Assembly (NCBI RefSeq): GCF_006345805.1
Contig: NC_043024.1
Coordinates: 8,990,001-9,054,000 of the forward strand
Length of the DNA stretch: 64,000 bases
Direction: 5' to 3'
From: Octopus sinensis
Lineage: Eukaryota
Below the pieces are notes generated by a model. The model was given only the letters and a program-made list of their open reading frames with translations, was not told the origin of the DNA and searched no databases. The position numbers were made by a program, and so were the translations under genes. This document shows positions 1-41,984 of the stretch, piece by piece (position 1 is the first letter of the stretch; the number at the start of each line of letters is the position of its first letter).

Positions 1-207
1 TACATATTATATATATATATACACATATATGTAACAAGCTTCTTTCAGTTTCCATCTACCAAATCCACTCACAAGGCTTTGGTCAGCCCAAGGCTATAGT
101 AGAAGACACTTGCCCAAGGTGCCACGCAGTGGGACTGAACCCAGAACCATGTGGTTCGTTAGCAAGCTACTTACCACACAGCCACTCCTATGCCTATATA
201 TACATAT

Positions 208-289
<82 letters not shown>

Positions 290-649
290 CATGTGACTAA
301 GTGCATAACAGATTATGTGCAAAGCTTGCATACGCACACAGACTCCCCCATACACACACACAGAGTCTTATCTCAAAATATAATAACCGCAAGTGTAAAC
401 ATTTCCCACTGCCACCCTATAAATAGACCAAATTCAGCAGAATTCCGTTGCAGTTGCTTCAACACATTGACCGCGCAAGAATTTCCTTAGACAAAGACTT
501 CAGGCAGAAATTGAAATCCAATCTGGTAAATATTATATTTTTTCTTCCTTTAAAACTTTATTGAAATCTATAGTTTTCAATTTTACTTGATAATTTTTAA
601 GATTCCTCCTGTAATTTTAGTTACCATTTAAAATAATGAAATTATTTTA

Positions 650-1436
650 AACAGTGCTCAGGTGCACCACAACTTGTCAGAAAGTGCGTATAAAGCATAT
701 GCAGTAATGTACAAATGTCTGGGAAGCGAACAGTATATAAGTCAGATACATGCTTGTGTGTGTATGGAGGGGAGAAAATCAGGTGTAGTGTTGGCGAATC
801 TCAGAAAGCATGGAAGTTTTGAAAGATGCAGTGCTCCGACAACTAACAACTGATGCCAGCAGTTTTTTCCATGCTTCAGCAACTCTCAGCGTGAAAAAAT
901 GTTTCCGAAAGAAAATTTGATTATTTTAATAATAATAATAATAATAATAAAATTATTGTATACAGTGCTCAGGTGAACCACAACTTGTCAAAAGTGTGTA
1001 TAAAGCATATGCAGTAATGTACAAATGTCTGGGAAGTGAATAGTGTATGAGTCAGATACATGCTTGCATGTGTATGGAGGGGAGAAAATTAGGTGTAGTG
1101 TTGGCGAATCTCAGGAAGCATGGAAGTTTTGAAGGATGCAGTGCTCCGACAACTAACAACAGATGCTGGCAGTTTGTTCCATGCTTCAGCAACTCTTAGC
1201 GTGAAAAAATGTTTCCGAAAGTCATGGGAGCTGTGCTGTTTTCTGACTTTGTAAATATGCCCACGGGTGTTAGACAGGTGGAGTTTGAAAAGGTGCTCAG
1301 AGTTATTGTTTGTAAGATGGTTAATAATCTTATGGGTGTCTGCCAAGTCAGCTGCCAGACGTCGGAGTTTCAATGTATCATGCCCAGGGAAGTAAGGCGT
1401 TCAGAATATGGCAAATGCCTGATGGAGGGTATATTT
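650..1436 (-). mobile_element. CR1/L2-type LINE 3' fragment with its terminal ~300 bp duplicated in tandem
   Basis: ORF 1089-1373 (LAADLADTHKII...RGHIYKVRKQ...FRKHFFTLRVAEAWNKLP) is a typical CR1-like ORF2 C-terminus, with (ATT)n tails; a second terminal unit lies at ~650-950. Confidence 0.85.
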
Positions 1437-2334
1437 TAAAAAATATTATCAGATTTTATTATTTTTTTTAATCAACTTACAATTTTCTAACACATTTGCA
1501 TCATTAACCATTCATCAGAGCTATCTGTATATCAATTCCTCAAAGCTATTTGGTATGTGTATTTGTATATATACATTATTTTGTGAGTAACATTTTAGCA
1601 TTTCAAGCTGTTGAATTTAATCCGCCTTAAAAAATTTACTTTCTAAATCCCTCGGCACGAGCTGGAGTCTGCTTAGTTTTTGTATTTTTCTCATAATACC
1701 AAATGAAACGGTCTAAAGTTTTCTAAATTGACCAACAACGTTTTTAGTTTTTGACTGCAAGAGAGTATCTATTTAGTTGTTCTGTTCGCGTTTTGCATTT
1801 GAATGTCCATTTTCTTAATATACACCTACCTAACCTACCCCGCCGCCCGTGTGGCACGACACATGACCATTAATCTCTCGAAGGTCCAGTACAGTCGTGG
1901 CCTTGCCCTTTGTTGGCTGTACCATTACCATGAGTCGGAGCACTCTGCTCTTCACTTCTTCCTTCCACAGGATAAGGATACCCTCCTTGATCCATCTCTC
2001 TACTTCTCCTTCAAACCCACTCCTGGCATCTCCTTTCAAGGTATGATGACAAAAGCTTAGCCTGATTCTCAGCATTGAGGACTCCCCTTTCCAGTGCCAC
2101 TCAACAGTCTACCACTGATCGTTGAACACTGCCTGAAAATCTTTATCTCCAATAGTGTAAGCAGCCCTTTCTGCCCCATGGCGCTTTCCTTTCTCCTGTT
2201 GCAGACACATCGCGCATAATGCCCCTGTAACACCAAATGAAACCATGTCTCCACAAACACTGACACCTCCTAGGTGGTTGATTACGTCCATGCCCATCAC
2301 CACATCAGTTCATTCTACCACATGGTCGATCACA

Positions 2335-2690
2335 ATTACCCACAGCCTACACTCGCCTCCTTACGAGGGCTCAAAATCTCTCGTGGAAGTGTCACCCAAC
2401 CAAAGTACAAATATATGGGAAATTACCACCTGTGTCATCTCTTGTGAAAGATAGGAGAGTCCAGTTTGCTGGACATTGTTGTAGAGCTGAAAAAGAGGTA
2501 ATTTCTCCTCTTCTCCTCTTGAAGCCATCTGCTCGCGATACCAGAGGGCGCACACTCTCCTATCCTGATGTATCTCCAGGGATACAGGCATCCAGCAACA
2601 GGACCTCCGTAATGCTATGATGGACTGTGAAGTCTGGCGTAGCATAGTAAATTCCATTGTCTCAACCACGGTCGAACAATGATGATGATC
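2335..2690 (+). mobile_element. RTE-like LINE 3' fragment (mirror of 42860-43210)
   Basis: Same peptide remnants (VQFAGHCCRAE) and TGATGATGA tail. Confidence 0.8.
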
Positions 2691-2707
2691 GTATATATAT
2701 ATATATA

Positions 2708-3102
2708 CTAGCAGTATCGCCCGGCGTTGCTTGGGTTTGTAAGGGAAATAACTATATAAGCATTTTTAGAGAGTTATAGCTAAAAAATAGCAAAAAAATG
2801 CATTAAAAATTGAAAAAAAATTAAGGTAAATTTTTTTTTAAATCGTTGACACATCGTAGATATTTTTAGAGAGTTACTTCCCTTATATAAAAGCGAAAAA
2901 AATGCATTAAAATGGAAAAATATGATGGTAAATTTTTTAAAAATCGTAGACTCATCGTAGACGCACGCTAATACCCAGAAGGGCTCGATATGAATCACGA
3001 CTATAAGATACCCGCTTTTGGTTAAACTGCACCGCAAAATGTGGGAGTAGTTAGGAATCTAAATCGTAGGAGACAGACACACAACTTCACTCTTATATAA
3101 AG
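2708..3102 (-). mobile_element. Non-autonomous Helitron-like element, left-arm-specific, inserted in a (TA)n tract
   Basis: On - it ends GCAACGCCGGGCGATACTGCTAG (subterminal hairpin plus CTAG) and starts TTTATATAAGAG...GTGTGTCTGTC. Same family as 26116-26606. Further Helitron-like or unknown sequence continues to ~4274. Confidence 0.7.
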
Positions 3103-4289
3103 ATGCTTTTTTTTTTTCAGTCATAGAGTTAGATTTATGAAGGTCTTCAGTAGAAAATCCTTCGAATTCTGACTCACTGCTTGATATAATAAAATTCGTA
3201 TCCATTTTTTGTCAGAATTACAAATTTTGAAAACACAATAGGAACAAATTTCGGAAAAAAATCTCCCATAATTCACGGAATTAAAATTATACTTCGATTT
3301 TTGTACAAAACTGTAGTTGAAGTGTTTACGAAGTATAATACGTGTTTTCACGAATGTACTAAAGAGATTTGCTCTGATATTCTCATTTAAATATGAATAG
3401 GTAAATTCGGGCGGCTTGGTAACTATATATAAGTGTCGTCTGTTTATACATAAACACTGTTTCATACTGCAATTATATATACATATATCTATATATAATA
3501 TTATATAATAAAATATATACAGAGTAAAATAAAAACCAATTTACCTTTTCTGTCCGTCCGTATGTCTTTGCAAATGTGTTGGAATGATAAGTGAGTTGAG
3601 TTTTGGCGCCTTTTTTACTAATAACAAACACACACGTGTTTGTATGTAGTTGTATGTGTATGTAGTTGTATGTAGTTGTATATGTATGTGTATGCGTGTG
3701 TGTGAGGAATGACACACACACACTCACGCACGCACACATGTACATCAATGCTTTCGGAGTGATATGTTAAAATATTGAGTTTTCTCGAATTTTGTCTTAA
3801 TTGGTGGTAAAATTGAAAGAAATTTTTTATGGCATCACCAACTGAAGTACTCTGAAAAATCTTAGGTAAATTCTAATTGAAGAAATTGTGTGAGGAGTAA
3901 ATGGTTATGTATTTATTTGTTTCTGTTTGCTGTGTTTTTTTATTTTTTGAGTAGTGGTTTAAATACTTTCAGTTTAGTCTTCCTCAAATCACTCTGTCGC
4001 TATTTACTTTCATTTTATTCGTTGCACACTGTGTGTGTGTGTTTGCATGTGGTGTAAACCAGACTAAGAAAAGCATTTGACACACACACCAGAATGTGAG
4101 TTTTCTGTAAATTTTGCTTAATTGGAGTTTAAATTTTAAAAACTGGACCTGGCATGACGCGATGCATTCTACTCTTAAAAATGCTAGGTAAATTGTAATT
4201 GAAGAAATCCTATATTGTAGATTTCTATAACTCCCAAAGGGAGGCAGATAAAATCTGCCTTTTATAATAAGAGATATATATATATATAT

Positions 4290-4710
4290 ACAGTTGAACC
4301 AATTCTACTATATGGCTCAGAAACCTGGATGTTATCAAAGAAGCTTGAGAGGCAGTTGGATGGAACTTACACTCGCCTCCTTATGAGAGCTCAAAATCTC
4401 TCGTGGAAGCGCCATCGAACCAAAATGCAAATATATGGGAAACTACCACCTGTATCATCTCTTGTGAAAGGTAGAAGAGTCCAGTTTGCTGGACATTGTT
4501 GTAGAGCTGAAAACAAGGTAATTTCTACTCTTCTCCTCTGGAAGCCATCTACTCGCGATACCAGAGGGCGCACACTCTCCTACCCTGAATAATCTCCAGG
4601 GATACAGGCATCCAACTACAGGACCTCTGTAATGCTATGATGGACCGTGAAGTCTGGCGTAACATAGTAAATTCCATTGTCTTGACCACGGTCGAACAAT
4701 GACGATGATG
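4290..4710 (+). mobile_element. RTE-like LINE 3' fragment (mirror of 41985-42400)
   Basis: ORF 4329-4592 MLSKKLERQLDGTYTRLLMRAQNLSW...; TGATGATG tail. Confidence 0.8.
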
Positions 4711-4901
4711 TTGTGCTCTGCACCGCTATTTCTACTTTGCTGCTTCTCTGACATCTAATTTCACTGCTTCGATTGCCGGGACACTACTCATCCCCTTCCG
4801 TTGTTTTGTTACCCTTGGGTTCACGCAAGACATTGTACAGTCCATATCCATGAGGGCTTTGAACACCTTTCCTCCAACCAGGAATTTAACTATGGGCAAT
4901 G

Positions 4902-5320
4902 TATTTCTTTACTGCCCACAAGGGGCTAAACATAGAAGGTACAAACAAGATCAAAGGGATTATGTCGATTACATCGACCGCAGTTGGAAACTGGTACTTT
5001 ATTTAATCGACCCCGAAAGGATGAAAATCAAAGTCGACCTCGGCGGAATTTGAACTTTGAACATAACGGCAGACAAAATACCTATTTCTTTACTGCCCAC
5101 AAGGGGCTAAACATAGAAGGGACAAACAAGAACAGACAAAAGTATTAAGTCGATTACATCGACCCCAGTTGGAAACTGGTACTTTATTTATTGACCCCGA
5201 AAGGATGAAAGGCAAAGTTGGCCTCGGCGGAATTTGAACTCAGAACGTAACGACAGACGAAATACGGCAACGCATTTCACCCGCCGTGTGAACGATTCTG
5301 CCAGCTCGCCACCTTTTCAG
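4902..5320 (-). mobile_element. SINE family 2, mirror copy with only 2 units
   Basis: Same TSD (CTATGGGCAATG at 4890-4901 and 5321-5332); unit starts at 4902 and 5083. Confidence 0.85.
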
Positions 5321-5582
5321 CTATGGGCAATGACTACATGAAAGCCTCTACTTGCTCACAGGGTATGTTTGAGGGGCAGCAACTTCCCCATGGCCTTTTC
5401 CCTGGTGTCAATTTCGAGCAATATATCCTGCCTGCCTGCAACAGTAGCAAATGGGTCCGGGCTTTGTCTCCGTGGTGTCCCTTGTTGTGTGGGCCCTGGC
5501 ACCTGAAGCACCGGCCCATGAACGATTGCTGCTGCTCCACGACACTTTTCCTCTCCTCATTTTTTACTGATTGTCAACAACA

Positions 5583-5999
5583 GGCGCAGGAGTGGCTGTG
5601 TGGTAAGTAGCTTGCTTACCAACCACATGGTCCTGGGTTCAGTCCCACTGCGTGGCACCTTGGGCAAGTGTCTTCTACTATAGCCTCAGGCTGACCAAAG
5701 CCTTGTGAATGGATTTGGTAGACAGAAACCGAAACAAGCCCGTCGTACATATGTATGTATATATATATGTGTGTGTGTGTGTTTGTGTGTCTGCGTTTGT
5801 CCTCCCAACATTGCTTGACAACTGATGCTGGTGTATTTATATCCCTGTTACTTAGCGGTTCGGCAAAAGAGACCGTTAGAATAAGTACTAGGCATCAAAA
5901 GAATAAGTCCCGGGGTCGATTTGCTCGACTAAAGGCAGTGCTCCAGCATGGCCACGGTCAAATGACTGAAACAAATAAAAGAGAGTAAAGAGTAAAAGA
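5583..5999 (+). mobile_element. tRNA-derived SINE (family 1); mirror copy 39942-40360 on -
   Basis: A-box-like TGGCTGTGTGG, B-box-like GGTTCAGTCCC, core TGGCACCTTGGGCAAG, internal (TA)/(TG) tract, (GAGTAAAA)n tail. Confidence 0.85.
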
Positions 6000-7066
6000 G
6001 AACAGAAAATATAATTTTAGTATATTTTAAACAAAATGTCAACTTTCAAATAATTTACTGTATATATAAATAATTTTAATGTTTTAACATTTCAATTCAT
6101 AAATTGTAGTAGAAGAATTTAACAGCCTATTAAGTTTTAAAAGACGATATTTTTTATATATCTTCATAGATCAGATTTAAATATTGTATTAAAATTTTTA
6201 ATTGAGGGAGAAAGAGTGATAGTTATTTGAAAGAATAGATTTGTAGAAAGAAAGGTACCATCACTTTGTCAAAATATTGATACACTTGAATATTTAAAAA
6301 AATGAGAACCAGAAGTATGAATATAGCTAGAGTGTTATGCAAAGTAGAAGTGTATATATGGTAGGTAAATTCATTAAGTAGGCATTGTGTCAAGACTAAA
6401 AATGTGAAGACTTGGCAATAACTTTGGCAGTAACTCAAGCAAATTTTACTGTGATTTTGTTGTTATAGATAGATTTTACTGTAATATATAACTAATTTTT
6501 GTATTATCTTAATTATTGTACTAACTAATTATTTTTATTACGTATTTTCAAATTTCTAATTTTTAAATACCTTTCATAAACAAGAAAAATTGCTTGAATA
6601 TTTAACAATTTGGTGACAGTATATTTTTCTCTCATTACATGTTTATCCTACATTAACATTTTAATGTGGAATGGCTTCTGAAAATTATTTTGCATTGTCT
6701 GAAATTATTATAAACTGTGTTACGAAAGGTATATTTAATTATTAAATAATAATGAAAAAAATGAATTTTTGTAAAATGCAAAAAATATTTTAATTGAATT
6801 ATTTTCAGTTTTAATAAAAGCTAATATTTTCTAAATCTAAATATATTATTTGAAGTTTTATCCTTAGCTGTAATATTTTAAGTAAAAATTTTCTTCTTCC
6901 ATATTTTACCAGATGTAATAACTTGTTCTGTACTTTTGCAGGTTTATAATCTTTTTGCAGGTTTATAAGAATATTATTTCTTTTGCTCACATTTTTCCAT
7001 GTAATATATGCATTGTTTGTGTTTTTAAAGTAATGAAATGAACATTTCCTCCCTCAAACTATAATA

Positions 7067-7631
7067 TTGGGTTGTCCGGAAAGTTCGTGCCGATTTATAG
7101 TAGCTTACCTTTCAACTTATTTTAGAACATGGTTGAGTCCGTAAAATAGGATTTGCCTATACCTCCATATAGAGCACAATTTAAGCTATCTTTTTGTGGA
7201 AGAAGGTTTATGTTCCTATAACCTGTGTTAATTCTGTAACCCTTTAAAATGGAAGATAAGAAAGTTAATTTTCAGCACTTGATGCTTTGGGAACCAGACA
7301 AAAATTGCTGCAGCTCGGCTGGGATGTGTTACCCCACCCTCCATATTCACCAGACATTGCTCCTTCGGATTTCCACTTATTTAGGTCTCTGCAGAATAGT
7401 CTTAATGGTAAAAATTTCAATTCCTTACATGACATAAAAAGATTCCTTGATGAATTCTTTGTCATGAAACCACCTGAATTCTGGGAAGAGGGTATTTTCA
7501 AGTTAAGGAAAGATGGAGACACATTGTGCAACACAATGTTTCACATTTGGTTGATTAAAAATGTAATGTCAAGTATTTATTGACCTTTTTCTTTCCTTTA
7601 AAGATCGGCAAGAACTTTCCGGACAACCCAA
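7067..7631 (+). mobile_element. Internally deleted (non-autonomous) mariner element, 565 bp
   Basis: TIRs TTGGGTTGTCCGGAAAGTTC(G/T)TGCCGAT, TA on both flanks. Transposase N-terminus (MEDKKVNFQHLMLWE) is fused directly to the C-terminal catalytic part (WDVLPHPPYSPDIAPSDFHLF). Confidence 0.95.
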
Positions 7632-7650
7632 TATTCTCTTAGAGCTAAAT

Positions 7651-7673
7651 GTTTTCCTTACATTTCCTTATAG
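7651..7673 (+). promoter_or_regulatory. Candidate 3' splice acceptor just upstream of the large ORF (mirrored at 38262-38284 on -)
   Basis: GTTTTCCTTACATTTCCTTATAG|AATCATTATG: polypyrimidine tract plus AG at 7672-7673, 7 nt before the ATG. Confidence 0.55.
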
Positions 7674-7680
7674 AATCATT

Positions 7681-10600
7681 ATGGACGACCCAAAAGGAAA
7701 TACTCCAAGAACATCTACTACTCAGAAAAGTGTTTCCCGTGATCCAGCAACAAAAAGTGACGAAAGAGTTGAAAAGAAAAAACGGAGAAATGAGAGAGAT
7801 GAAGGTTCCGGATCAAGTGACGAAGGACATGATAGTACTAGCAGGTCTGTTACAAGATTCAAAGCATATAAAGGCAAAGGAAGCAGAAAGGAAACAGAAG
7901 TGATACAACAGCAAAAAGCTGTACTACACAGATTTGAGTCTCAATATCGCTACTGTGAGGCGTTTATGCAAGATATATTTAAGGAGAGTTACCACTTCGA
8001 ATGTTTGGGATTAAGTGCCAATTCCATTTTGCAAAATATCAAAGAGAAAGTCAGGATCTTGCTGAAATATATGAAAAATCATAATATTTCTATTGAACAG
8101 GACCTTGAATTGTTTCAAAAGAAACTTTATGACATATTTGTGAATAGCAATCCATACAAATACAAGACCATTGGTGTACCGAAGATAGACAAATTTCGTT
8201 CTGTTTGTCCGGTTGGAACCAGAGAAGCAAAGATTGAAGAATCAGGGGAAGATGTGTGCAATATTATATCAAAAATTATTGTCTTACAAGATGCGGTGGT
8301 AACATATTCCGAACTTTGTAAGACAATATGTTGTGCGACATCAGATAAAGGCAGAAATGAGGTTCATTGCCCGTCTTCTGTTACTGATTTTACCAGAATT
8401 GGTCAAAAGTCTGTTCTGGCTACACTCCCCTTTAGACAAATGATTCTTATTATCAATCCTTCTAGTTTAAAACTGAAAACACTTTCTTTAGGTTTTTATA
8501 TGGTTTCGTATTTACAACATTCTACATTTATAGGTGTAGAAATGTTTGGTAAAACCATATACCTTGTTGACTGGGATGATAATGAAATTATCGAACAATT
8601 CGTTACCAAAGAGTTACCTGCAGATATTGCTGTAGGATCACAGAATAACCTGTTAATATCCTTTACCAATATTAACAGAGTTATTTGTTACAATCTCAAT
8701 GGCCAGCAGTTATTTGAGGTAGAGGTCCATTCTCTGGACCTTCCAACCAACATCGCTGTGTATCAAAACCATTTTTATGTCCTCCAGGGACATATTATTT
8801 ACAGAATTTCAGCTACAGGTGCTGTTTCAAAGAGAGAAATTGGCAGGAGATGTCGGTATATTTCTGTTGGCAAAGATACCATTTTCTTGATTGATTATTT
8901 GTGTTTTCCTCATACTATTAAGACAAACAAAGACTTCTGGTCCAGGTTGTCATACAGCCATCAGCTACATAGCCATAGTTTGAACAACTATATCTATACT
9001 GAGGATTGCAACAATATCACAAATATTCTACCTATGACAACATCTTCTATACTGATCATCTACAAGAATAAAAAAGCTATATTTTTCACTGATATTGGAG
9101 GGAAAATTAGCCAAAATAATTTAACTTTTGATTTCCCTCCTTCTATATTTTGTAAACTGAACTCAAACAGCTTTCTGGTCTTTCATCGTGAAATGAAAAG
9201 ACTTCAGTATATCACATGTCCTGAACTAAACAAAGGCCCTTTAATAAAGGTTCACGCTGATTATATTAAAATATGTCATATGGTATCAAACAGGTGTTTA
9301 GCTCTGACTACCAGTGATAATAAACAGGAGATACATATCCTATTGATTAAGGAAGACAAAGTTGATATCATTGAAAGAATTTCTCTGGAACATGATAATG
9401 TCACCATTGCTGCAACTCCAATTAATTTTGTAGTCCTAGACAGAAGGAAAAATAAACTGGTATTTTATTCCGCTTCTAGTGAAAAACTTTTTGAAAAATA
9501 CCTTCAATTCTACGGCTACCCCCATCACATCCAATCTGACAATATTTATTTTTATGTTTTCTTCAAAAAAGAGTCTGTTGTGATATGTTATAATATACAT
9601 GGAGAAATTAAATGGCAATGGAAGCTACCTTTCCCTGTTCACCCTCACATTGCTATTTTCCAAGGAACTGTTTACGTGCCGGACATTGAACACAACAGGG
9701 TTCTTCTTTACGAGTATTATGACCAGTCTAGCTGTCGTTTACACGTAAAAACTCCTTACATAAGAAATCTGAATATACGACTTAAAGAAAAAGAGAATGA
9801 CAAAAAAACTCTGATTGTCGAAATATGCCATCTAGTAAATGGACAGTTGGTGGTATCTGACATAAACAGTGATTGCTTGTTATACATTTCTAACGAAGGA
9901 GAGATTGTGTCTAGATTATCTCTGCCATCGACAGCTACAGATATATGTCGATGGGATTGTAATCAGATAGGTGTCACATTACCCCTAGAGAAACAATTAC
10001 AGGTGATTGGAAACCTATCAAAGACAGTTAGAACCATATCGTTAAGTCACGCTTATGTAAAGGTGTGTAAGCTGGGTAAAGGTCACATTGTTTGTTATTC
10101 TGATAAACCATCTCAATTAGATATTTTAGCCATTAAAAATTATAATCAGGTTGAAATGATTCGTAGAATTAATATCCCTTTTGTAGTAAAATCATTAGAA
10201 ATAGAAAATGAAACTCTAAATCTATTAATTGTTACTAGGAATAAAGTATTTCAGTACAACACTTCTATTGATAGTGTTGGCCATAGTTGTAGGAATAGTA
10301 TTAAGATGATCCCCAGGGATTTCCTGTCCGGAGTAAAACACTCCCTTAATTTCTCTGGAGGATGTATTGACAAAATGTTTGTGTATCTGATAGGCAACAA
10401 CCGTGTGCTTGCTATAAATGACCATAACTTGGTGGGGAGAGACCACATCATGAATAATCAACTTATCTTGTACATTGACCTGCTAGATGTATTTTCTAGA
10501 AACATATGTGTCGGTGAGATGTGGTCTTCTACATTATATGTACAGGATATGACAGTTTCTGATAAAGCTAGACACGTTATTGTCCCTCCAGGTTTTGGAG

Positions 10601-13059
10601 ATGAAAAATTAGTAAGGATTGATTGTCTGGTTATTACTGAAAATAACCTGATAGCAGTGTATGACAGTGAAAATAGAAACATTAAGATATTGACATTTGA
10701 CGGTCAACTTCTGGACTTTATCAAATTGGAGATTAGTACCAAGTTTAAGTCCAATATAAATATGTGTCGATGGCAGTCAAACACACTGATTATTACGACT
10801 GGTGATAATGATAATAAATACCAACTGTTGACATTAAAAGTGGAATTTCCATTGTCATTGACAATTTACCAAACTGAAAATGAATATGAATTTATCGCTT
10901 CTTTGTCAAACAATCAACTGGCGTGTCATAGACGGGGAGAAGCAGGTACTTTGTATGTCATTGAAATTGATGAAGAATTTTTGACTGTGAATAGAATAAA
11001 AAAATTGGATGCAGGTGGGATAATAATAACGAGCGGCATAGATAACGTCCATGATATTATAACTGATGCTAATGATGTCATCATTGTCAACAATAAAAGG
11101 TACTTTGTTTTCTTCAACACTGATGGTGAACATCTACATTCAGTTAGACACTATATGGATTATTCCAGTATTTCTAACACCATGACAACTGATAACTGTT
11201 ATTTGTATGTCCATGGTCGGTGGGAAAGATATTTTGGTGACAACAAATATAATAACATTTTGTGTTTCACACAAACTGGTGAATACAGCAGAAGATTTTT
11301 GAATGACAGAATTTATAAAGATGAAGTAAATTTCAGTAGCATAAACTGTAAAGGACCAAGGTTTGTTGGAAGCTGTTCGAACATAAATAAATTGTATGTT
11401 GAAGGTTTGTTTCAAGTTAAGCGAGAAATCTTCCCTGTTTCTCGTTTGCTAACAGACAAATGTCCTATTCAAGTAAAAGACATTGATATCTCTGATGAAG
11501 GAAAAACGATCGTGTGTGAGAAAGCCAATAATGGAATTGTTAAAATATTTGATAGAGATGGGCAGATGCTTTGTCACAAAGATGTTAGAAGTTTAGTTGG
11601 TGGTGTGTGTTTTACAGGAGAAAGTGACATAATGGTTACAATTCCTAAACGACAAGAAATATTTCAACTGAAGCAACAAGATCTGGAGAAATATAAAGTT
11701 TGGCAAAGTCACGTACCTTATGGTGTAATATGGAGAGCAGTGGCAAATATTTATTGGTGCGTACATATTAACTTGATTGAATATCATCGCATAAAGATTG
11801 ATGGTGACCAACTGAAGGTTCTGGAATCTTTGTCATTATTAAATCTTGATTCTGGTCTTCATTTCCCTTTCATTACATCTCAGATGAACAAAAAAATATT
11901 CAGTCATGAGTTGATTAATAATCTGGAACAGAGTCGGGGAGATGGAGAAGGAAGAAAAGGTAAATCAAATGAAATAGTTAGTAAAGGTAGATTAAAGGTG
12001 CGATGTGGTAATTACATAGCGGAGAGTATGTCAGGAATTGAGGAAGTATCAGTGAAGAAACTGCCATATAGAACAGCAATGGTTCCTCTTTCCATTCCTA
12101 CGGTGGAAGAACCTGTTGATTATCATTACAAATATGACAGTAACGATAGTAAATTAATTAAGTTGTACGACAATTTCAGTGTGTTCATGTTTAGAGACAC
12201 AGTTACATTAATCTGCACAACAACAGGTGACATACTTCAGCAAAAACAACTGCCACAACAACCATCGAAACAACCACCATCACTAGATATATGTCGGTGG
12301 ACAGGTGAACGTTTCATAGTCGTCTGTCGTAAACGACTGATGGTCTTCAACAGGGATCTCTACCGTTTAAAAACCATCAACACTGAGAAATACTACAACA
12401 GGATTTGTAAATACAATGACAATCAACTGGTGTGTGGTGGTATTTCTTTTAGCAGGGAAAGTTACCGTGTCTATGTAGATGTACTTGATATTGATATTGA
12501 TAATGGGACGTGTGAACGTAAGAATGAAATGTATAGTGAGGTGGTGAAGATGCGGGAGTGGGAGGACGTGGGTGTGTGGATGCGGATGCTGATGAGGAAG
12601 GAGGTAGGATTGGGTGTGTTGGATATAGCAGTGACATCTAGTGGTGATGTTGTTGTTGTGAAGTGGAAGAATGATAGTCAGGATGTCGTTGTCTTGTGGT
12701 ACAGGGAAAAATCGTTAGTCAATAGTATATGCCTGCCAAAATGTACAAATTACCTGAATTTTAAACACAGACCCTGTCTAACCACACTTGGTGACTATGT
12801 TTATGTAACAGACAGGCTTAACAATATTTATCAAATACCTGGAGATATTCCACACCAAACATCAGAAGATATTCATAAATACTTATTACTCAGGACGATG
12901 ATAACGAAGTCTTCCAAGTGCTTGGTTTTGATATTTCAGACAATTCTTTCATGGTTTTTGGAATTATTGCAGGACGCCAGTCTTTTGCTTTCTTTCATTA
13001 TGAAAGATAAACGTTCTCATAAATATTGGGTTGTCCAGAAAATTTGTGCTGATTTATAG
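7681..13059 (+). CDS. Large single-exon protein with ~6 tandem NHL/TolB-like beta-propeller units; left-arm copy with a 1-bp frameshift near the C-terminus
   Basis: Uninterrupted 1792-codon ORF in AT-rich DNA. Recurrent blade motifs (DICRW-like) at aa ~236, 489, 754, 1027, 1308 and 1536. Compared with the other copy, one G is missing at 12893-12894 (CAGGAC vs CAGGGAC), so the homologous stop TAA at 13008-13010 is out of frame and the ORF runs into the mariner TIR. The coding call is strong; the fold call is motif-based inference. Confidence 0.9.
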   Translation: MDDPKGNTPRTSTTQKSVSRDPATKSDERVEKKKRRNERDEGSGSSDEGHDSTSRSVTRFKAYKGKGSRKETEVIQQQKAVLHRFESQYRYCEAFMQDIFKESYHFECLGLSANSILQNIKEKVRILLKYMKNHNISIEQDLELFQKKLYDIFVNSNPYKYKTIGVPKIDKFRSVCPVGTREAKIEESGEDVCNIISKIIVLQDAVVTYSELCKTICCATSDKGRNEVHCPSSVTDFTRIGQKSVLATLPFRQMILIINPSSLKLKTLSLGFYMVSYLQHSTFIGVEMFGKTIYLVDWDDNEIIEQFVTKELPADIAVGSQNNLLISFTNINRVICYNLNGQQLFEVEVHSLDLPTNIAVYQNHFYVLQGHIIYRISATGAVSKREIGRRCRYISVGKDTIFLIDYLCFPHTIKTNKDFWSRLSYSHQLHSHSLNNYIYTEDCNNITNILPMTTSSILIIYKNKKAIFFTDIGGKISQNNLTFDFPPSIFCKLNSNSFLVFHREMKRLQYITCPELNKGPLIKVHADYIKICHMVSNRCLALTTSDNKQEIHILLIKEDKVDIIERISLEHDNVTIAATPINFVVLDRRKNKLVFYSASSEKLFEKYLQFYGYPHHIQSDNIYFYVFFKKESVVICYNIHGEIKWQWKLPFPVHPHIAIFQGTVYVPDIEHNRVLLYEYYDQSSCRLHVKTPYIRNLNIRLKEKENDKKTLIVEICHLVNGQLVVSDINSDCLLYISNEGEIVSRLSLPSTATDICRWDCNQIGVTLPLEKQLQVIGNLSKTVRTISLSHAYVKVCKLGKGHIVCYSDKPSQLDILAIKNYNQVEMIRRINIPFVVKSLEIENETLNLLIVTRNKVFQYNTSIDSVGHSCRNSIKMIPRDFLSGVKHSLNFSGGCIDKMFVYLIGNNRVLAINDHNLVGRDHIMNNQLILYIDLLDVFSRNICVGEMWSSTLYVQDMTVSDKARHVIVPPGFGDEKLVRIDCLVITENNLIAVYDSENRNIKILTFDGQLLDFIKLEISTKFKSNINMCRWQSNTLIITTGDNDNKYQLLTLKVEFPLSLTIYQTENEYEFIASLSNNQLACHRRGEAGTLYVIEIDEEFLTVNRIKKLDAGGIIITSGIDNVHDIITDANDVIIVNNKRYFVFFNTDGEHLHSVRHYMDYSSISNTMTTDNCYLYVHGRWERYFGDNKYNNILCFTQTGEYSRRFLNDRIYKDEVNFSSINCKGPRFVGSCSNINKLYVEGLFQVKREIFPVSRLLTDKCPIQVKDIDISDEGKTIVCEKANNGIVKIFDRDGQMLCHKDVRSLVGGVCFTGESDIMVTIPKRQEIFQLKQQDLEKYKVWQSHVPYGVIWRAVANIYWCVHINLIEYHRIKIDGDQLKVLESLSLLNLDSGLHFPFITSQMNKKIFSHELINNLEQSRGDGEGRKGKSNEIVSKGRLKVRCGNYIAESMSGIEEVSVKKLPYRTAMVPLSIPTVEEPVDYHYKYDSNDSKLIKLYDNFSVFMFRDTVTLICTTTGDILQQKQLPQQPSKQPPSLDICRWTGERFIVVCRKRLMVFNRDLYRLKTINTEKYYNRICKYNDNQLVCGGISFSRESYRVYVDVLDIDIDNGTCERKNEMYSEVVKMREWEDVGVWMRMLMRKEVGLGVLDIAVTSSGDVVVVKWKNDSQDVVVLWYREKSLVNSICLPKCTNYLNFKHRPCLTTLGDYVYVTDRLNNIYQIPGDIPHQTSEDIHKYLLLRTMITKSSKCLVLIFQTILSWFLELLQDASLLLSFIMKDKRSHKYWVVQKICADL

Positions 13060-13886
13060 TAGCTTACCTTTCGACTTATTTTAGAACATGGCCTTCGTAT
13101 AAAGCACCATCCGATTGTGGCCGTTGCCAGCCTCGTCTGGCCCCGTGCCTGTGGCACGTAAAATGCACCATCCAATCGTGGCTTTTTGCCAACCTCGTCT
13201 GGCACCTGTGCAGGTGGCACGTAAAAAACACCTACTACACTCCTGGAGTGGTTGGCGTTAGGAAGGGCATCCAGCCGTAGAAACATTGCCAGATTAGACT
13301 GGGCCTGGCGCAGCCTTCTGGCTTCCCTGACCCCAATTGAACCGTCCAACCCTTGCTAGCATGGAAAACGGACGTTGAACGATGATGATGATGATGTTGA
13401 GTCCATAAAATAGGGTTTGACTAAACCTCCATTTAGAGCACAGTTTAAGCTATCTTTTCGTGGAAGAAGATTTATGTTCCTATAACCTGTGTTAATTCTG
13501 TAACCCTTTAAAATGGACGATAAGAAAGTTCATTTTCGGCACTTGATGCTTTGGGAACCAGACAAAAATTGCTGCAGCTTGGCTGGGATGTGTTACCCCC
13601 ACCCTCCATATTCACCAGATATTGCTCCTTCGGATTTCCACTTATTTAGGTCTCTGCAGAATAGTCTTAATGGTAAAAATTTCAATTCCTTGGATGACAT
13701 AAAAAGATACCTTGATGAATTCTTTGCCATGCAACCCCCTCAATTCTGGGAAGAGGGTATTTTAAGGAAAGACGGAGACACATTGTGCAGCAAAATGGTT
13801 CACATGTGGTTAATTAAAGATGTAATGGCAAATATTTATTGATCTTTTTCCTTGAAAAATCGGCATGAACTTTCTGGACAGCCCAA
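13026..13886 (+). mobile_element. Second internally deleted mariner of the same subfamily, with a nested RTE 3'-tail insertion
   Basis: TA-TTGGGTTGTCCAGAAAATTTGTGCTGATTT ... CGGCATGAACTTTCTGGACAGCCCAA-TA. Same internal deletion junction (TGCTTTGGGAACCAGAC) and HPPYSPDIAPSDF motif as 7067-7631. Confidence 0.93.
13092..13396 (+). mobile_element. 5'-truncated RTE-LINE 3' UTR (or RTE-tailed SINE) inserted in the mariner
   Basis: Interrupts the mariner sequence CATGG|TTGAGTCC. Ends in CCATGCTAGCATGGAAAACGGACGTT-like sequence plus a (GAT)n tail, matching the 3' end of the LINEs at 47846 and 55072. Confidence 0.85.
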
Positions 13887-14550
13887 TATTAAGGTCTGTT
13901 GTTGCTATTGTTACTGGCTTCACTTAGGAATTGAACCTGCTTCACTTACTTTGTATTCTATACACTAACAATTATTGTTGTAACATTCTTCAATGCACTC
14001 TACGAGTTTGTGAGTTAATGAAGTTACATAGTAGCTACATCTGCTAAAAATAGCAGTCAAATCTTATTAAAATATATTTATTTAAATTATTTATATATAT
14101 GATGTAATGATACTTAAAAATGTGAATATCTTATATAAATAAGTGCTAACGATGTATTAAGTTAATTATTGAAAAATAAATTGTTTTGATAAAGAGAAAA
14201 CTTGTATTCAATTTTTACATACCTTACATACATTTCATCCCTGTCTCCCTCTCAAACACACAATCTCAGCAACGACCTTTTCCAACTAACACTTTATCCT
14301 GAAGAAGGCGTCTTCACCCCAGGAATATTGAAAAACAAGATAAACACCTGTGTTCTGTTTCCTTTCTTTTTGCAGTTTACATTGTAACTTTTTGCCTTCT
14401 TCCAGCCTTACACAACGACCTTCTTTAAAATACATTTGTGTGTGAATGTGTACACCCTTCTCATTTTCCCTATTTGTCTCTGATGATGGAATATCCCATA
14501 CTCTGGGATTTATCAGAAACAGCTGTAAGACTTTGAATATTTTTTTTCTA

Positions 14551-14715
14551 TGGCTGTGTGGTAAGTAGCTTGCTAACCAACCACATGGTTCCGGGTTCAG
14601 TCCCACTGCATGGCATCTTGGGCAAGTGTCTTCTGCTATAGCCCCAGGCCGACCAAAGCCTTGTGAGTGGATTTGGTAGATGGAAACTGAAAGAAGCCTG
14701 TCATATATATGTATG

Positions 14716-14756
<41 letters not shown>

Positions 14757-14971
14757 ATGTGTTTGTTTGTCTGTGTCTGTCCCCCTAGCATTTCTTGACA
14801 ACCGATGCTGGTGTGTTTACGTCCCTGTCACTTAGCGGTTCAGCAAAAGAGACCGACAGAATAAGTACTGGGCTTACAAAGAATAAGCCCTGGGGTCGAT
14901 TTGCTCGACGAAAGGCGGTTGCTCCAGCATGGCCACAGTCAAAGGACTGAAACAAGTAAAAGAGTAAAGAG
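14551..14971 (+). mobile_element. SINE family 1; mirror copy 30690-31151 on -
   Basis: Same head, core and tail. Confidence 0.85.
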
Positions 14972-15534
14972 TAATGACATGCATGACTTGAGATATTTGC
15001 CTTGCCTTAATGCTTGCTGTTCTCTTTAACCATTAAATACCCGCTATATCAGAAATCTTCAACGGCTCCATAAGTACCGTGTCGGCTGTAACCTTATCGC
15101 CCTAGCAATCCGTTAAAGCACTTACCTACCGTGCCTAATCATTTAGATCACCTGTGAAATAAACCCCCATATTTTGTGTGTATATATGTATATATGTATA
15201 TATATAACCTTGGAGTCCCAGTAATCCATTACAGTACTTAAATAGTATAATTAATCGTTTATATCACCTGTGAACTAAACCCCTATATTTAGTGTATATA
15301 TACACACACATACATACATATATATACACACATACATACATATATACACATACATATATATATATATACACATACATATATACACATACGTACATATATA
15401 TGTATACACATATACATGTACATACATATATATGTATACACATATACATATACATACATACATATATATATACATACGCATACATATATATACGTATATA
15501 TATATATATATATACAATACACATACATACGTAC

Positions 15535-15564
<30 letters not shown>

Positions 15565-15565
<1 letters not shown>

Positions 15566-15735
15566 CCGGAGTATACACATAAATGTGTAACAAGGTGGAA
15601 AAAAGAGTACTCAAATACCAGTGGTAGACTAATATGCTTTATTTAAAGTTTTTGCTAGCAAAAACTGTCCGATGAACGGCAACGGGAAACTCAGAGTAAC
15701 AGGTTTTGTTGAATTTTCTGCTGCTATAAATAAAG

Positions 15736-15737
<2 letters not shown>
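15565..15737 (+). mobile_element. Penelope-like pseudo-LTR fragment with an inverted junction and a hammerhead-like motif
   Basis: Inverted arrangement around the palindrome GTTTTTGCTAGCAAAAAC, opposing AATAAAG/CTTTATT signals, and a degenerate hammerhead core at 15661-15709. The family call is inferred from this architecture. Confidence 0.5.
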
Positions 15738-15767
<30 letters not shown>

Positions 15768-15933
15768 GATAGATAGATAGATAGATATAACTGAGCAGTT
15801 TGGCAAAAGACACCAATAAAATAAGTACTAGAGCTTTAAGGGTGGCTCCAGCATGGCTGCATTAAAATGACTGAACCCCCATCCCATGCCAACATGCAAA
15901 ACAGACGTTAAAGGATGATGAGGGCATATATAT

Positions 15934-15979
<46 letters not shown>

Positions 15980-15980
<1 letters not shown>

Positions 15981-16365
15981 GAGCAAAACGCCCTCCCCCC
16001 GTCCAATAGACTGTGCTGAGTTGTCAAAAATTTAAACCAAATTTTCTCAAAACAACTTGTCTGACTGTCCTATAGACCTCCCCTTTGAGAAACACTGATT
16101 TAACCTAAATTTGAGACACCAGCAAAAGAAGAAATAAAGGTAGACTTTTTTTCTATTCCAAGAAAAACGACTCTACAAATGCACGTTCCCACGGCTTTAT
16201 CGATCGCATTCTCACCTGGAATCGATTTTTGTAATTTTTTCAAGACTTATACACGCCCTGATACCGTCGGTATCTACATATCAAATTTGAACGCAATCGG
16301 ATGGAGGATGCCTGAGATCCAAGAAGTCACACAGACAGACAGAACAGATTTTATATAAAAGATAT
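15980..16365 (-). mobile_element. Helitron/DINE-like non-autonomous element shared by both arms (mirror ~27835-28200)
   Basis: 5' TTTTATATAAAATCTGTTCTGTCTGTCTGTG pattern resembles the other rolling-circle-like elements here; the 3' end is not clearly defined. Confidence 0.5.
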
Positions 16366-16461
16366 ATATATATTTATTATTTGATGGAATAAAATCCAAA
16401 CTTACAAGGAAATAGAATTCAATTAAGAAATACTAAATCAAATTCCACAATATAATATATA

Positions 16462-16760
16462 TAAAATATTAGAAAAAAACCACCTTTTATCAATTCAAAA
16501 TGAATAATTAAATTACACCATCTAGAAAATTACATATAATAGAAAAGTTAAAGATTAAGTAAATTACAAAATAATATAATATATATAATAGGTATTATAT
16601 ATAATACCTATTATGTACATTATATTATTTTTGTAATTTACTTAATCTTTACTTTTTTATTGTTATTTTAATTTTAACTTTTCTTTTATATGTAACTTTC
16701 TAGATGGTGTAATTTAATTGTTCATTTTGAAAGGATAAAAAGTGTTTATTCTTCCAATAT
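16462..16760. repeat. ~300-bp AT-rich fold-back (hairpin) element; mirror copy ~27432-27733
   Basis: Arms of ~150 bp centred on ATAATAGGTATTATATATAATACCTATTAT (centre ~16600); CACCATCTAGAAAATTAC pairs with GTAACTTTCTAGATGGTG. Confidence 0.85.
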
Positions 16761-17004
16761 TATATATATATATGTATATATTTCTTGTTTTTTGTTTTTT
16801 GTTTTTTTCCGCTTCTACGTCTTATTGTGATGTCCTGTACTCACGTATAATTATTTATATATGCATGTATATATACATGTAGATGTAGGTACGTACATAT
16901 ATGTTTGTATGTATGCATATATTTTTATTTATCACCTTATTGTCTGACAGCGCCCCGCATCAGGTTCGTTCCGATTCGTCGTTTCGGTCCAATTCTTGGT
17001 TCCT

Positions 17005-17009
17005 TTTTT

Positions 17010-17069
<60 letters not shown>

Positions 17070-17092
17070 GTATATATTATTATGTATATATA

Positions 17093-17146
<54 letters not shown>

Positions 17147-17247
17147 TATATATATATATGTATGTTATAGATATATATGTATGTATATATATATATATAT
17201 GTATGTAATATATATATATGTATGTATATATATATATATATGTAATG

Positions 17248-17290
<43 letters not shown>

Positions 17291-17450
17291 ATGTTATATA
17301 TATGTATATATATATGTATATTATATGTATATATCTATTTATATATATATATATATATATGTATATTGTATATATATATATATATATGTATATGTATATG
17401 TATATATATGTATATTATATATATATGTATATATATATATTATATAATAT

Positions 17451-17481
<31 letters not shown>

Positions 17482-17739
17482 TATATATATATATATATGT
17501 ATATATAATATGTATATATATATATGTATTAGATATATAGTATTATTATATAGATATTGTATATATATATGTATATATATATGTATATATATATATATAT
17601 GTATGTATATATATATATATGTATATAATATATATATGTATATATAATATATGTATATATATATAGGTATATATATATTATATTATGTATATATATATAT
17701 ATGTATATATATATATTATGTATATATTATATATATATG

Positions 17740-17776
<37 letters not shown>

Positions 17777-17819
17777 GTAATATATATTATATATATATGT
17801 ATATATATATATATATATG

Positions 17820-17870
<51 letters not shown>

Positions 17871-17876
17871 TGTATG

Positions 17877-17921
<45 letters not shown>

Positions 17922-17930
17922 GTATATATG

Positions 17931-17963
<33 letters not shown>

Positions 17964-18070
17964 GTATATATATCTATATATATGTATATATATATATATT
18001 ATATATATATATATATGTATATATATATGTATATGTATATGTATATATATATATATATGTATATATATAA

Positions 18071-18111
<41 letters not shown>

Positions 18112-18166
18112 AATATATATATATGTATATTATATTGTATATATATATATGTATATATTATATATG

Positions 18167-18231
<65 letters not shown>

Positions 18232-18240
18232 GTATATATA
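17005..18240. repeat. Degenerate (TA)n microsatellite
   Basis: Almost pure AT dinucleotide with G/T interruptions. Confidence 0.98.
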
Positions 18241-20530
18241 TTTTTTTTTTTTTTTTTGATTCCAGTTTCGCTCATTAGCTGTGCCATGCTGGGACACCGC
18301 CATTTGGTGTTGCTACTTGGTTTCACTTCATGGAGGCTTTCTAGCAACTGCTATTTGGTGCATGAGAGAGTTCGATGCAGCTGCCCTCATCTGCCCCTCC
18401 TGCCGTGAAGTTGGTTCATCTGGGACACCTGACAGGAAGAGATCCAGCTTCATTTTAAGACATCTGTATCCACCCCATGCAGGTCTCTCAGGTTCTTCGG
18501 GAGGATATTGAAGAGCTGTGGCCTCGGAAGCCCAGGCTATCACAGAATCTTGTCCTACATCTTGATGGCAGGTTTGGAGTCTAGGCACCACGCAGTGGCG
18601 CCCAGTTCTGGCATTTGCGTAACTCTCGATGCCAAAGTTCAGGACATCTCCTCCCTCCAGGATCTTCCAGATTATATTATGGCATATCTTTCCCGCCTAC
18701 GCTCCAGGGAATATAATTTAATCTCTTGAGTCTTTCCCAGTAGCTTACATCTGCATAGAGGCTATCTTCTTTGTGTAGCTTCGTTGGATCGCCTCAAGTT
18801 CTGTGATCAACTTGACACTGGATGGTGACCATAGCTGAGAGCAATAGTCAAAGTGGCTTAGGACAAGTGTCTTTCCAGAGGACCATCATGGTTTCTTGTT
18901 CTCTTGTTCTAAAGGTTCTAAGAATCCATCGCCAGCCGTCTACATTTCATTGTCAGTTAGCAACATGTATATGAAAGGTCGCGTCATCACTCATGTGAAT
19001 ACCCAGGTCACGCACTGATTGTGCCTCTGGGATTGCAATCCCTCCGGGTCCAGTGTATTCATTGGGTATTGCATCATTTTTGCATGCTGATAGTATAAAG
19101 CTTGAAACTTTCCAGCTTGAACTGCATGCTATTCTTTTCAGCCCACTTGTATATTTCGTCTAGCTCACATTGCAGGTGTTTAGTGTCCTCAGGGTTCTGT
19201 ATTGCCTGTGAAACTTTTGTATCATCTGCATAACTTGTGATCGTGGCTCTCTGCGTGGCTGAGGGCATGTCTGAGAGGGCCATTATGAACAGTAGTGGTC
19301 CCAGAACAGTGCCCTGCGGAACACCGCTCACTATTTGTGTGTTAATGGAGGTGGCCCCATTGGCTACTACCACCTGACTTCTATCCTTCAGAAAGTCATG
19401 AAGCCATTCTCCCAGTTTTCCAACTATGTTGAGATCACGCAGTTTGTGACATATCATTCCATGATCGACTTTATCAAAGGCCTTTGCAAAGTCGAGATAT
19501 ATCACTTCCACATTTGAGTGGTTGAGCAGCCGTTTCATGCACCCAGTCATAGTGTTGTAGGAGCTGAGTTAAACAGCTCTCCCCTGGTCGGAAACCATGT
19601 TGGGTGTCGGGCAGCAAGTCATTCTCTTCAAGGAAGGTGATCAGCTTCCTTCTGACTATTTCGTTCCATGACCTTGCTGATGTGTGAGGTCAGAGAGATA
19701 GGTCTATAGTTCTTGGCTTCCGCTCTGCTACCTCCTTTATGAATGGGGCATATTTTTACCTTCCTTCAGTTTTCTTGGAAGTTTGCCAGCTGCAAGGAAG
19801 CTCTGAAAGAGGAACTGCAGTGGTCTTGCTAGGACCTCTCTTACATGCTTTAGGAGGATTGCCGGGAATCCATCGGGGCCAGTAGCTGAGTCTGTTTTCA
19901 TTTCATCTATAGCCTTGGTACATCGTCTTCATTTATATCGATGTAATCTACGTCGCCGCCTCTGATTTTATATCTGCAGTGGTAAAAAAGTCAGTTGGAT
20001 TTGGTGATTTGGAGATGCCCAAGGGGTGGAGTAAAACACTCTTGAATTGCTCATTCAGTATTTCACTTACCCTCATTGATTTTCCTGTAAGTGTGCCATC
20101 CTTTTCGAGGAGTGGCCCTATTCTACAGTGCACTGTAGCTGTTTTCTTTTTCTTTGGCATACCTGTAGAAAGCTCTGGGGTTAGATTTTATGTTTCTATA
20201 GCCCAGGCTTCTTTGTCTGCTCTTTCTTTTTCATGGAGAGTTGCAGACATTTTTCGATTTCCAACAGTTTTATTTTAGGCGGGACTTTTCACTGCTTTCA
20301 ATCTGTTTGTTTAGGCGATTTGAAAATTTCGTACGCCGTCTCATTAAAATTTTCCTCTCTCTGGGATTTTGTTCTTGTGTACAGTGGCCTTTCTCTCTGG
20401 GACACATTTGGCATATGGCTTGCATTACAGACATGAATTGTTGAAGTTTCACGTCGATGTCTGGCGAGGAGAGACATTCAGGCCAGTTTTGTTTGAGGAT
20501 CTCTTTCTCAATTGTTTCCAATTTGTTTCC
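18241..20530 (-). mobile_element. 5'-truncated CR1/L2 (Jockey-group) LINE, left-arm-specific, degenerate
   Basis: RT motifs IYLDFAKAFDKVDH, GVPQGTVLGPLLF and YADDTK (ORF 19074-19550). C-terminus KLDLFLSGVPDEP...RAAASNSL. Poly(A) appears as a T-run at 18241-18258. Confidence 0.9.
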
Positions 20531-20577
20531 ATGTATATATATATATATGTATATATATAATATGTATATATATATAT

Positions 20578-20609
<32 letters not shown>

Positions 20610-20647
20610 TATGTAGATGTATATTATATATATATATATTATATATG

Positions 20648-20724
<77 letters not shown>

Positions 20725-20759
20725 ATATATATATATATAGTATGTTATATATATATATG

Positions 20760-20828
<69 letters not shown>

Positions 20829-20849
20829 GTATATATATATATATGTATC

Positions 20850-20883
<34 letters not shown>

Positions 20884-20924
20884 ATACATTATATAATATA
20901 TATATATATATGTATATATATATG

Positions 20925-20974
<50 letters not shown>

Positions 20975-20980
20975 GGTATA

Positions 20981-21033
<53 letters not shown>

Positions 21034-21289
21034 ATTAATTAATAAGGGTGAGAGAATTAGATACTAATTTAATAGTATATCTATTCTACACCAAGTGGCC
21101 TAGTGCTCCGAGAAACCTGGATTATTTAATCTGTAATTTTGTTATTTTTATTTGCCTGTCCGTGTGAGCTAACAATCGTACTGACTTTCATGGGAAGCAT
21201 GTATTTTTTGTGGTTAAACCTTTTGGATTAACTGGTGCTAGAGTGAGCCATATAGTGACCACTCTCTTATATTTTATATTATTTATATT

Positions 21290-21321
<32 letters not shown>

Positions 21322-38254: not shown

Positions 38255-38303
38255 AATGATTCTATAAGGAAATGTAAGGAAAACATTTAGCTCTAAGAGA
38301 ATA

Positions 38304-38868
38304 TTGGGTTGTCCGGAAAGTTCTTGCCGATCTTTAAAGGAAAGAAAAAGGTCAATAAATACTTGACATTACATTTTTAATCAACCAAATGTGAAACATT
38401 GTGTTGCACAATGTGTCTCCATCTTTCCTTAACTTGAAAATACCCTCTTCCCAGAATTCAGGTGGTTTCATGACAAAGAATTCATCAAGGAATCTTTTTA
38501 TGTCATGTAAGGAATTGAAATTTTTACCATTAAGACTATTCTGCAGAGACCTAAATAAGTGGAAATCCGAAGGAGCAATGTCTGGTGAATATGGAGGGTG
38601 GGGTAACACATCCCAGCCGAGCTGCAGCAATTTTTGTCTGGTTCCCAAAGCATCAAGTGCTGAAAATTAACTTTCTTATCTTCCATTTTAAAGGGTTACA
38701 GAATTAACACAGGTTATAGGAACATAAACCTTCTTCCACAAAAAGATAGCTTAAATTGTGCTCTATATGGAGGTATAGGCAAATCCTATTTTACGGACTC
38801 AACCATGTTCTAAAATAAGTTGAAAGGTAAGCTACTATAAATCGGCACGAACTTTCCGGACAACCCAA
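38304..38868 (-). mobile_element. Internally deleted mariner element, mirror copy of 7067-7631
   Basis: Same TIRs, TA flanks and length (565 bp); the ORF-track peptides are identical to those of the left copy. Confidence 0.95.
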
Positions 38869-41780: not shown

Positions 41781-41984
41781 CATTGCCCATAGTTAAATTC
41801 CTGGTTGGAGGAAAGGTGTTCAAAGCCCTCATGGATATGGGCTGTACAATGTCTCGCGTGAACCCAAGAGTAACAAAATAACGGAAGGGGATGAGTAGTG
41901 TCCCGGCAATCGAAGCAGTGAAATTGGATGTAAGAGAAGCAGCAAATTAGAAATAGCAGTTCAGAGCACAACATCATCGTCATT

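Follow-up and report, generated by a model that had tools for sequence, protein, structure and literature searches.

Recent gene conversion probably homogenised a single-exon gene in patches between the arms of an old inverted duplication in Octopus sinensis

A 64,000-nt window of the Octopus sinensis genome (NC_043024.1, positions 8,990,001-9,054,000, forward strand; coordinates below are window positions) holds a large inverted duplication, each arm of which carries a copy of a single-exon gene. A base-by-base difference list from the aligned arms revealed three tracts (T1-T3) without a single substitution, together 5,061 bp with one 1-bp indel, which alternate with two diverged coding islands (I1 and I2). 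Recent gene conversion, in which arm B was overwritten from arm A and the islands were left behind, is in our judgement the probable explanation.

6757..8252, + strand: identical tract T1, 0/1496 substitutions; partner 39178-37683
8253..9155, + strand: diverged island I1, 21/903; partner 37682-36780; residues 191-492
9156..10724, + strand: identical tract T2, 0/1569; partner 36779-35211; residues 493-1014
10725..11045, + strand: diverged island I2, 24/306 plus a 15-bp in-frame indel; partner 35210-34905; residues 1015-1122
11046..13041, + strand: identical tract T3, 0/1996; partner 34904-32908; residue 1123 to 31 bp beyond the stop
6000..6756, unstranded: shoulder less diverged than the flanks, 13/756 substitutions (1.7%, flank rate 3.8%; P = 0.0015)
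7681..13010, + strand: single-exon coding sequence, arm A copy; a frameshift at 12892 extends the reading frame to 13059
32939..38254, - strand: single-exon coding sequence, arm B copy; 1,771 residues with a family-type C-terminus
1..24110, + strand: arm A, from BLAST and MAFFT self-comparison; extends past the window's left edge
24110..26720, unstranded: spacer between the arms, including a 100-N gap at 24759-24858
26720..45220, - strand: arm B, from BLAST and MAFFT self-comparison

Identical tracts alternate with diverged coding islands

The first-pass annotation had described one identity plateau over 6000..13025. This span contains 58 substitutions in 7,010 columns and four indels (13 substitutions in 6000-6756, 21 in I1 and 24 in I2), so that the single plateau falls while long perfect identity stands in three tracts. 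T1 comprises 924 bp of upstream DNA, including an entire mariner copy that is identical between the arms as had been noticed (0 differences in 574 columns), and codons 1-190. The long coding stretches reported as identical are so within the tracts only; between the two proteins, ~30 residues, a 5-residue indel and the C-terminus, which is frameshifted in arm A, are different. The only indel in the tracts, of 1 bp at 12892, lies in T3. Identity stops sharply at 13042, 31 bp past the stop, and two further remarks of the annotation hold from there on: the mariner copies directly downstream of the gene differ at 25 of 572 columns (Fisher P = 2e-8 against the upstream copies), and the apex-side blocks are more diverged still (45/748 and 46/697).

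When the 178 substitutions were scattered at random over 10,211 columns in 20,000 trials, identical runs as long as those observed (1,996, 1,569 and 1,496) were never reached, and the same was true when the permutation was restricted to the coding sequence; the longest permuted run was at most 913 over all columns and at most 1,382 within the coding sequence, against 1,569 and 1,965 observed there. The flank rate (120/3185, 3.8%), applied to the 1,771 neutral-type sites in the tracts (816 synonymous and 955 noncoding), leads to an expectation of 66.7 differences and none was observed; at the ~816 synonymous sites alone, 31 were expected. Homogenisation of synonymous sites had been argued from six pairs of alternative-frame open reading frames, correctly as to the result, although these pairs all lie inside the tracts, add nothing to the comparison and missed the islands.

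Outside the tracts the arms are 3.5-6.6% diverged, with many indels and insertions and unequal copy numbers of tandem repeats, so the inverted duplication itself is old. Substitutions in the blocks outside the gene number 68/1936, 43/1048, 42/849 and 26/679 aligned columns, and an arm-specific block occupies ~16770-23370 of arm A. The block around the gene is the longest stretch without large insertions between the arms (a single BLAST alignment of 9,149 columns). The shoulder at 6000-6756 is probably an older conversion, and a further dip at 13892-14500 (9/609) is likewise consistent with older conversion tracts.

The topology switches relative to O. vulgaris

A sister-species comparison, proposed by the first-pass annotation, was made at the protein level with four O. 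vulgaris models (P0002, P0004, P0057 and P0062) that lie on one 40.2-Mb record and are 89-95% identical to arm B. Orthology was assigned by similarity and columns near gaps were dropped, which left 114/117 columns in T1, 366/369 in T2, 423/447 in T3 and 60/69 in I2.

The comparison gave different topologies in the tracts and in I2. In all seven variable columns of I2, arm A goes with P0002 and arm B with P0004, the 5-residue indel divides the copies in the same way, and the tree joins arm B and P0004 with 99% bootstrap support. Since the I2 types pair across species, both types, and hence the duplication, predate the species split, which is given as 2.5 million years ago (10.1101/2023.05.16.540928). 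In T1, T2 and T3, both arms share the P0002 residue against P0004 at 17, 8 and 25 sites, respectively, while the reverse holds at 0, 3 and 7 sites (pooled, 50 P0002-like against 10 P0004-like, P = 1.6e-7). Of the 50 states shared with P0002, 13 are derived when the majority state among 18 paralogues is taken as ancestral, compared with one derived state shared with P0004. Trees join the two arms as sisters, with P0002 next to them, both in T1 (97%) and over residues 1259-1600 (90%); over residues 1601-1737 the grouping is of three O. vulgaris copies (84%).

Transfer in T1 and T3 ran from A to B. Across all five segments arm A differs little from P0002 (2/114, 6/302, 8/522, 0/71 and 11/424 differences, 0-2.6%), so the exchange was non-reciprocal and arm B was the recipient. 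Both arms carry G1542, where all four O. vulgaris models have D, as well as D1629 and a stretch of four residues near 1528, and no O. vulgaris model that covers these positions has any of them. Segments that are 17% diverged between O. vulgaris copies were erased between the arms in O. sinensis. Mosaics occur in the independent O. vulgaris genome as well: the model P0057 has an A-type first half of I2 joined to B-type sequence, and P0002 and P0004 are identical over their last 130 residues, yet differ at 19 of 114 columns in T1. The signature of gene conversion is therefore present at this locus: long identity that includes neutral sites, a duplication older than speciation with a switch in topology, and a donor that keeps its own type.

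Several observations weigh against this interpretation. In T2 the 8:3 count does not establish a direction (P = 0.23; bootstrap 56). Of the 50 direction sites, 10 reflect changes in P0004 and a further 27 are unpolarised. Residue 459 links arm B with P0002, and only 75 columns of I1 are usable in P0004. The four O. vulgaris models, all on a single record, were predicted automatically and lack blocks of sequence; they are compared as proteins, irrespective of orientation and with orthology by similarity. The O. sinensis model LOC118768319 (P0001) matches the arm A protein, including its frameshifted tail, and because it shares that tail it is not independent evidence. Finally, the data come from one assembly of one individual, in which an overwrite of B by A could also be the product of an assembler.

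Proposed course of events

The inverted duplication, at least 18 kb long, would have arisen ~4-17 million years ago, before the split of O. sinensis and O. vulgaris, and with it a second copy of a single-exon gene that encodes a large repeat protein. The arms would then have diverged and gained insertions, while the gene block stayed collinear over ~8 kb. The longest insertion-free stretch should favour conversion, and collinearity and conversion may have fed back on each other. Breaks in arm B would have been mended with arm A as template, by gene conversion within the chromosome and without reciprocal exchange, presumably with the arms folded back on each other, either in three tracts of 1.5-2 kb or in one discontinuous, patchily repaired tract of 6.3 kb. 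Arm B would now be an A/B mosaic that retains its own sequence only within I1 and I2.

Recent conversion, as first proposed, is thus upheld as the best explanation, in a different form: three tracts or one discontinuous tract, two unconverted coding islands and transfer mainly from A to B. The absence of differences sets a rough upper bound of 0.06-0.47 million years on its age, or 0.29 million years when arm A is compared with P0002; the rate behind the first of these bounds is a synonymous divergence of 0.123 over 13-34 million years (PMC10925132). Arm B was probably overwritten within the last 0.3-0.5 million years.

Two other sources of sequence were considered and set aside. Internal repeats of the gene are unlikely donors of the islands: among the self-BLAST matches listed there is no self-match of the coding sequence, and the repeat units are only distantly alike. 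Conversion templated by complementary DNA is also unlikely, as T1 continues for 916 bp upstream of an acceptor-like site that lies 8 bp from the ATG.

Alternative explanations

An addition to recent conversion, which we regard as possible though the less likely view, is that conversion is continuous and that the islands persist by selection keeping the proteins different there, as in an opsin-type divergence peak. I2 is a coding divergence peak inside converted DNA that is common to both lineages; its divergence of 7.8% exceeds the 3.8% flank rate (P = 0.0008), its 18.5 nonsynonymous and 5.5 synonymous changes are clustered at residues 1017-1025 and 1113-1122, and both of its types persist across species. 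However, I2 is not above the 6.3% apex rate (P = 0.29), and the ratio of nonsynonymous to synonymous rates is 0.91 in I2 (Fisher P = 0.61) and 0.54 in I1 (14 nonsynonymous and 7 synonymous differences), so that positive selection on the islands is unsupported. More strongly diverged segments, in T1 and in residues 1532-1596 (~20 changes), were erased in O. sinensis, and P0057 recombines within I2. Leftover remnants fit the islands at least as well as selection does. With regard to GC-biased conversion, at weak/strong differences in the islands arm B holds G or C in 23 of 34 cases (P = 0.058), a lean that is not seen in the flanks.

Another interpretation is that read correction or polishing replaced arm B with arm A sequence, and we consider this unlikely. 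The overwrite is unidirectional and the assembly is imperfect here, with unmerged, indel-rich contig ends at the apex and a frameshift (GG against GGG) in arm A. The flanks, however, retain 3.5-6.6% differences and many indels, the islands hold authentic types known from another species, and mosaic copies are present in O. vulgaris too. A consensus would moreover need six source switches with sharp borders within 6.3 kb, and reads from segments that are 7-17% different in O. vulgaris should map uniquely.

Slightly more doubtful again is a single homogenisation of the whole 6.3 kb followed by re-import of the islands from an unconverted arm B allele or a third copy. Zero substitutions in all three tracts is what a single event would give, and there are four close O. 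vulgaris models. But two extra events would be required, the synonymous divergence of I1 (3.6%) equals the flank rate as for a plain remnant, and among 89 matches, in which the five-member cluster of P0001 hides near-identical copies, no further O. sinensis representative exceeds 70% identity.

It is very improbable that the two arms are alleles of one locus joined across the 100-N gap at the apex. The sides of this gap overlap directly, with ~790 bp duplicated across it in the region 23970-25650 (792 columns, 94%, 21 gap openings; the differences are mostly indels), and the gap is false, a pair of unmerged contig ends. The contig to its right carries the arm A tip, the spacer and arm B, and both I2 types exist as separate O. 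vulgaris models. Purifying selection alone, or a very recent duplication, would suit an identity centred on the coding exon but is virtually untenable, as the first-pass annotation had reasoned for selection: 816 synonymous sites and 924 noncoding bases, a dead mariner among them, show no difference, the flanks and islands reveal an old duplication, and the A lineage has changed 21 of 1,060 tract residues since the species split.

The gene and its protein family

At position 12892 arm A has GG where arm B has GGG, by which arm A loses the last 39 family-type residues and reads into the mariner end. At the C-terminus arm B matches the family consensus and three O. vulgaris models, so that for arm A the indel means either an error in the consensus sequence or a new damaging mutation with loss of function. 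P0001 lacks 10 residues at ~12551-12586, between two 6-bp direct repeats and with gap ends that are not GT-AG, which may be a deletion allele or an artefact of the model. A splice-acceptor-like site lies 8 bp before the ATG (7650-7673) and a doubled acceptor-like motif further upstream (6925-6965); the region upstream of the ATG may be an intron.

The family was found in octopods only: all 55 full-length matches (from 4,555 candidates) and all 34 shorter ones (from 5,437 candidates) are named Octopus or Argonauta. It is large and clustered in octopods, with many of the O. vulgaris models among P0002-P0090 on one 29.2-Mb record. Pfam and PDB searches with the gene product gave no match; in particular, Pfam matches to NHL, B-box or RING were found in 0/2 arm proteins and 0/6 named octopod relatives. 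In Atlas the protein lies near NHL clusters that are TRIM2-like and molluscan (feature match 0.91-0.92). Among 50%-identity representatives there were 19 distant matches, including one protein with a B-box and NHL; eight unnamed ones were scanned, of which three had a weak NHL match, one of them above the cut-off. Two distant matches, to surface-repeat proteins of bacterial type, were regarded as fortuitous. As regards a six-bladed beta-propeller fold, a comparison of internal profiles from six segments cut by eye placed 4 of 15 pairs above 85%, with no PDB match. The protein probably consists of an N-terminal helical part and about six beta-propellers that may derive from NHL repeats, as far as sequence and profile comparisons can suggest.

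We offer only tentatively, and regard as rather doubtful, the idea that the family is a variable recognition repertoire in which kilobase-scale conversion between neighbouring copies makes mosaics by shuffling propeller segments that have diverged. Its substrate would be dozens of single-exon genes lying in clusters, each with about six units that resemble propellers, and arm B and P0057 its examples. If so, the mariner pair that brackets the exon could supply breaks or bound tracts, and the mosaic in arm B, being young, could still be segregating in O. sinensis.

Mariner copies and other features of the locus

7067..7631, + strand: internally deleted mariner, upstream copy, with terminal inverted repeats and flanking TA; partner ~38304-38868
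13026..13886, + strand: second copy of this mariner, downstream, which carries a nested insert of 300 bp; partner ~32053-32923

Only four mariner copies occur in the window, all in the two arms. They have the terminal inverted repeats, TA target duplication and transposase remnant of a non-autonomous mariner; the remnant matches the Mos1 transposase (E = 1e-18) and has no Pfam match. In arm A the upstream copy ends 49 bp before the ATG and the downstream copy, which is ~8% different from it, starts 15 bp after the stop, so that two direct copies tightly bracket the coding exon in a layout like that of a composite transposon. Because the two are 8% apart, against 4.4% between arms, the mariner pair is older than the duplication. 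T3 ends 16 bp inside the terminal repeat of the downstream copy, a weak coincidence among six borders that we treat as a lead only.

Tandem arrays of 302-, 185- and 437-bp units (at 60707-63407, 632-1221 and 44329-44608; at 40678-41780; and at 41973-43205, respectively) differ in copy number by arm, and a 101-bp unit is present three times in the spacer (26250-26553). The locus lies on a record of 20.3 Mb and the Z of octopus, according to PMC10925132, is a large chromosome; thus, the palindrome is probably autosomal.

Significance and comparison with known systems

The mechanism is well known; the locus is new and the gene family is uncharacterised. Literature searches on gene conversion, palindromes and concerted evolution of paralogues in octopus and other cephalopods returned nothing on this locus, and searches under six identifiers and for an octopus NHL/TRIM expansion returned no paper on the family, with subscription papers mostly outside the coverage of both. 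The locus presents arm-to-arm conversion that is resolved to the base, directional and polarised by a sister species, in a decaying and probably autosomal cephalopod palindrome. It also allows tract length to be estimated directly (up to 1.5-2 kb), offers a population test of conversion and brings an unstudied octopod gene family to notice.

Interlocus conversion with mosaic divergence between duplicates has been reviewed (PMC3924837) and described for copepod GOT1p1/p2 (PMC3728101). As in the cases presented there, identical tracts alternate with diverged coding islands, the proteins are chimeric, and tracts group the paralogues by species where islands group them by orthology; in contrast, the octopus copies are inverted, have one 5.3-kb coding exon and leave selection on the islands unproven. 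Inverted gene pairs of Caenorhabditis that are kept alike by conversion (PMC1803023) resemble the octopus pair in being convergent, invertebrate and older than speciation, with arm identity of up to 100%, whereas the octopus arms are much longer (at least 18 kb), mostly decayed and homogenised in patches over the gene only. Mammalian X/Y palindromes, described with arms >99% identical throughout (for example, PMC8981503), share arm-to-arm conversion, a large inverted repeat and a short spacer; the octopus arms, unlike these, are 93-96.5% identical outside the tracts and fall short of 99%.

Molluscan TRIM2/3-like NHL-repeat proteins resemble the arm proteins in their Atlas NHL cluster matches and through the distant match with B-box and NHL, but the arm proteins have no Pfam NHL, B-box or RING and about six repeat units rather than one. 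Conversion has been proposed for the reflectin and tyrosinase clusters of Argonauta (PMC9635652), likewise a case of concerted evolution of clustered octopod paralogues; unlike the octopus palindrome, those clusters are tandem, and conversion was inferred there from similarity, with no tract borders or direction given in the accessible part of that report.

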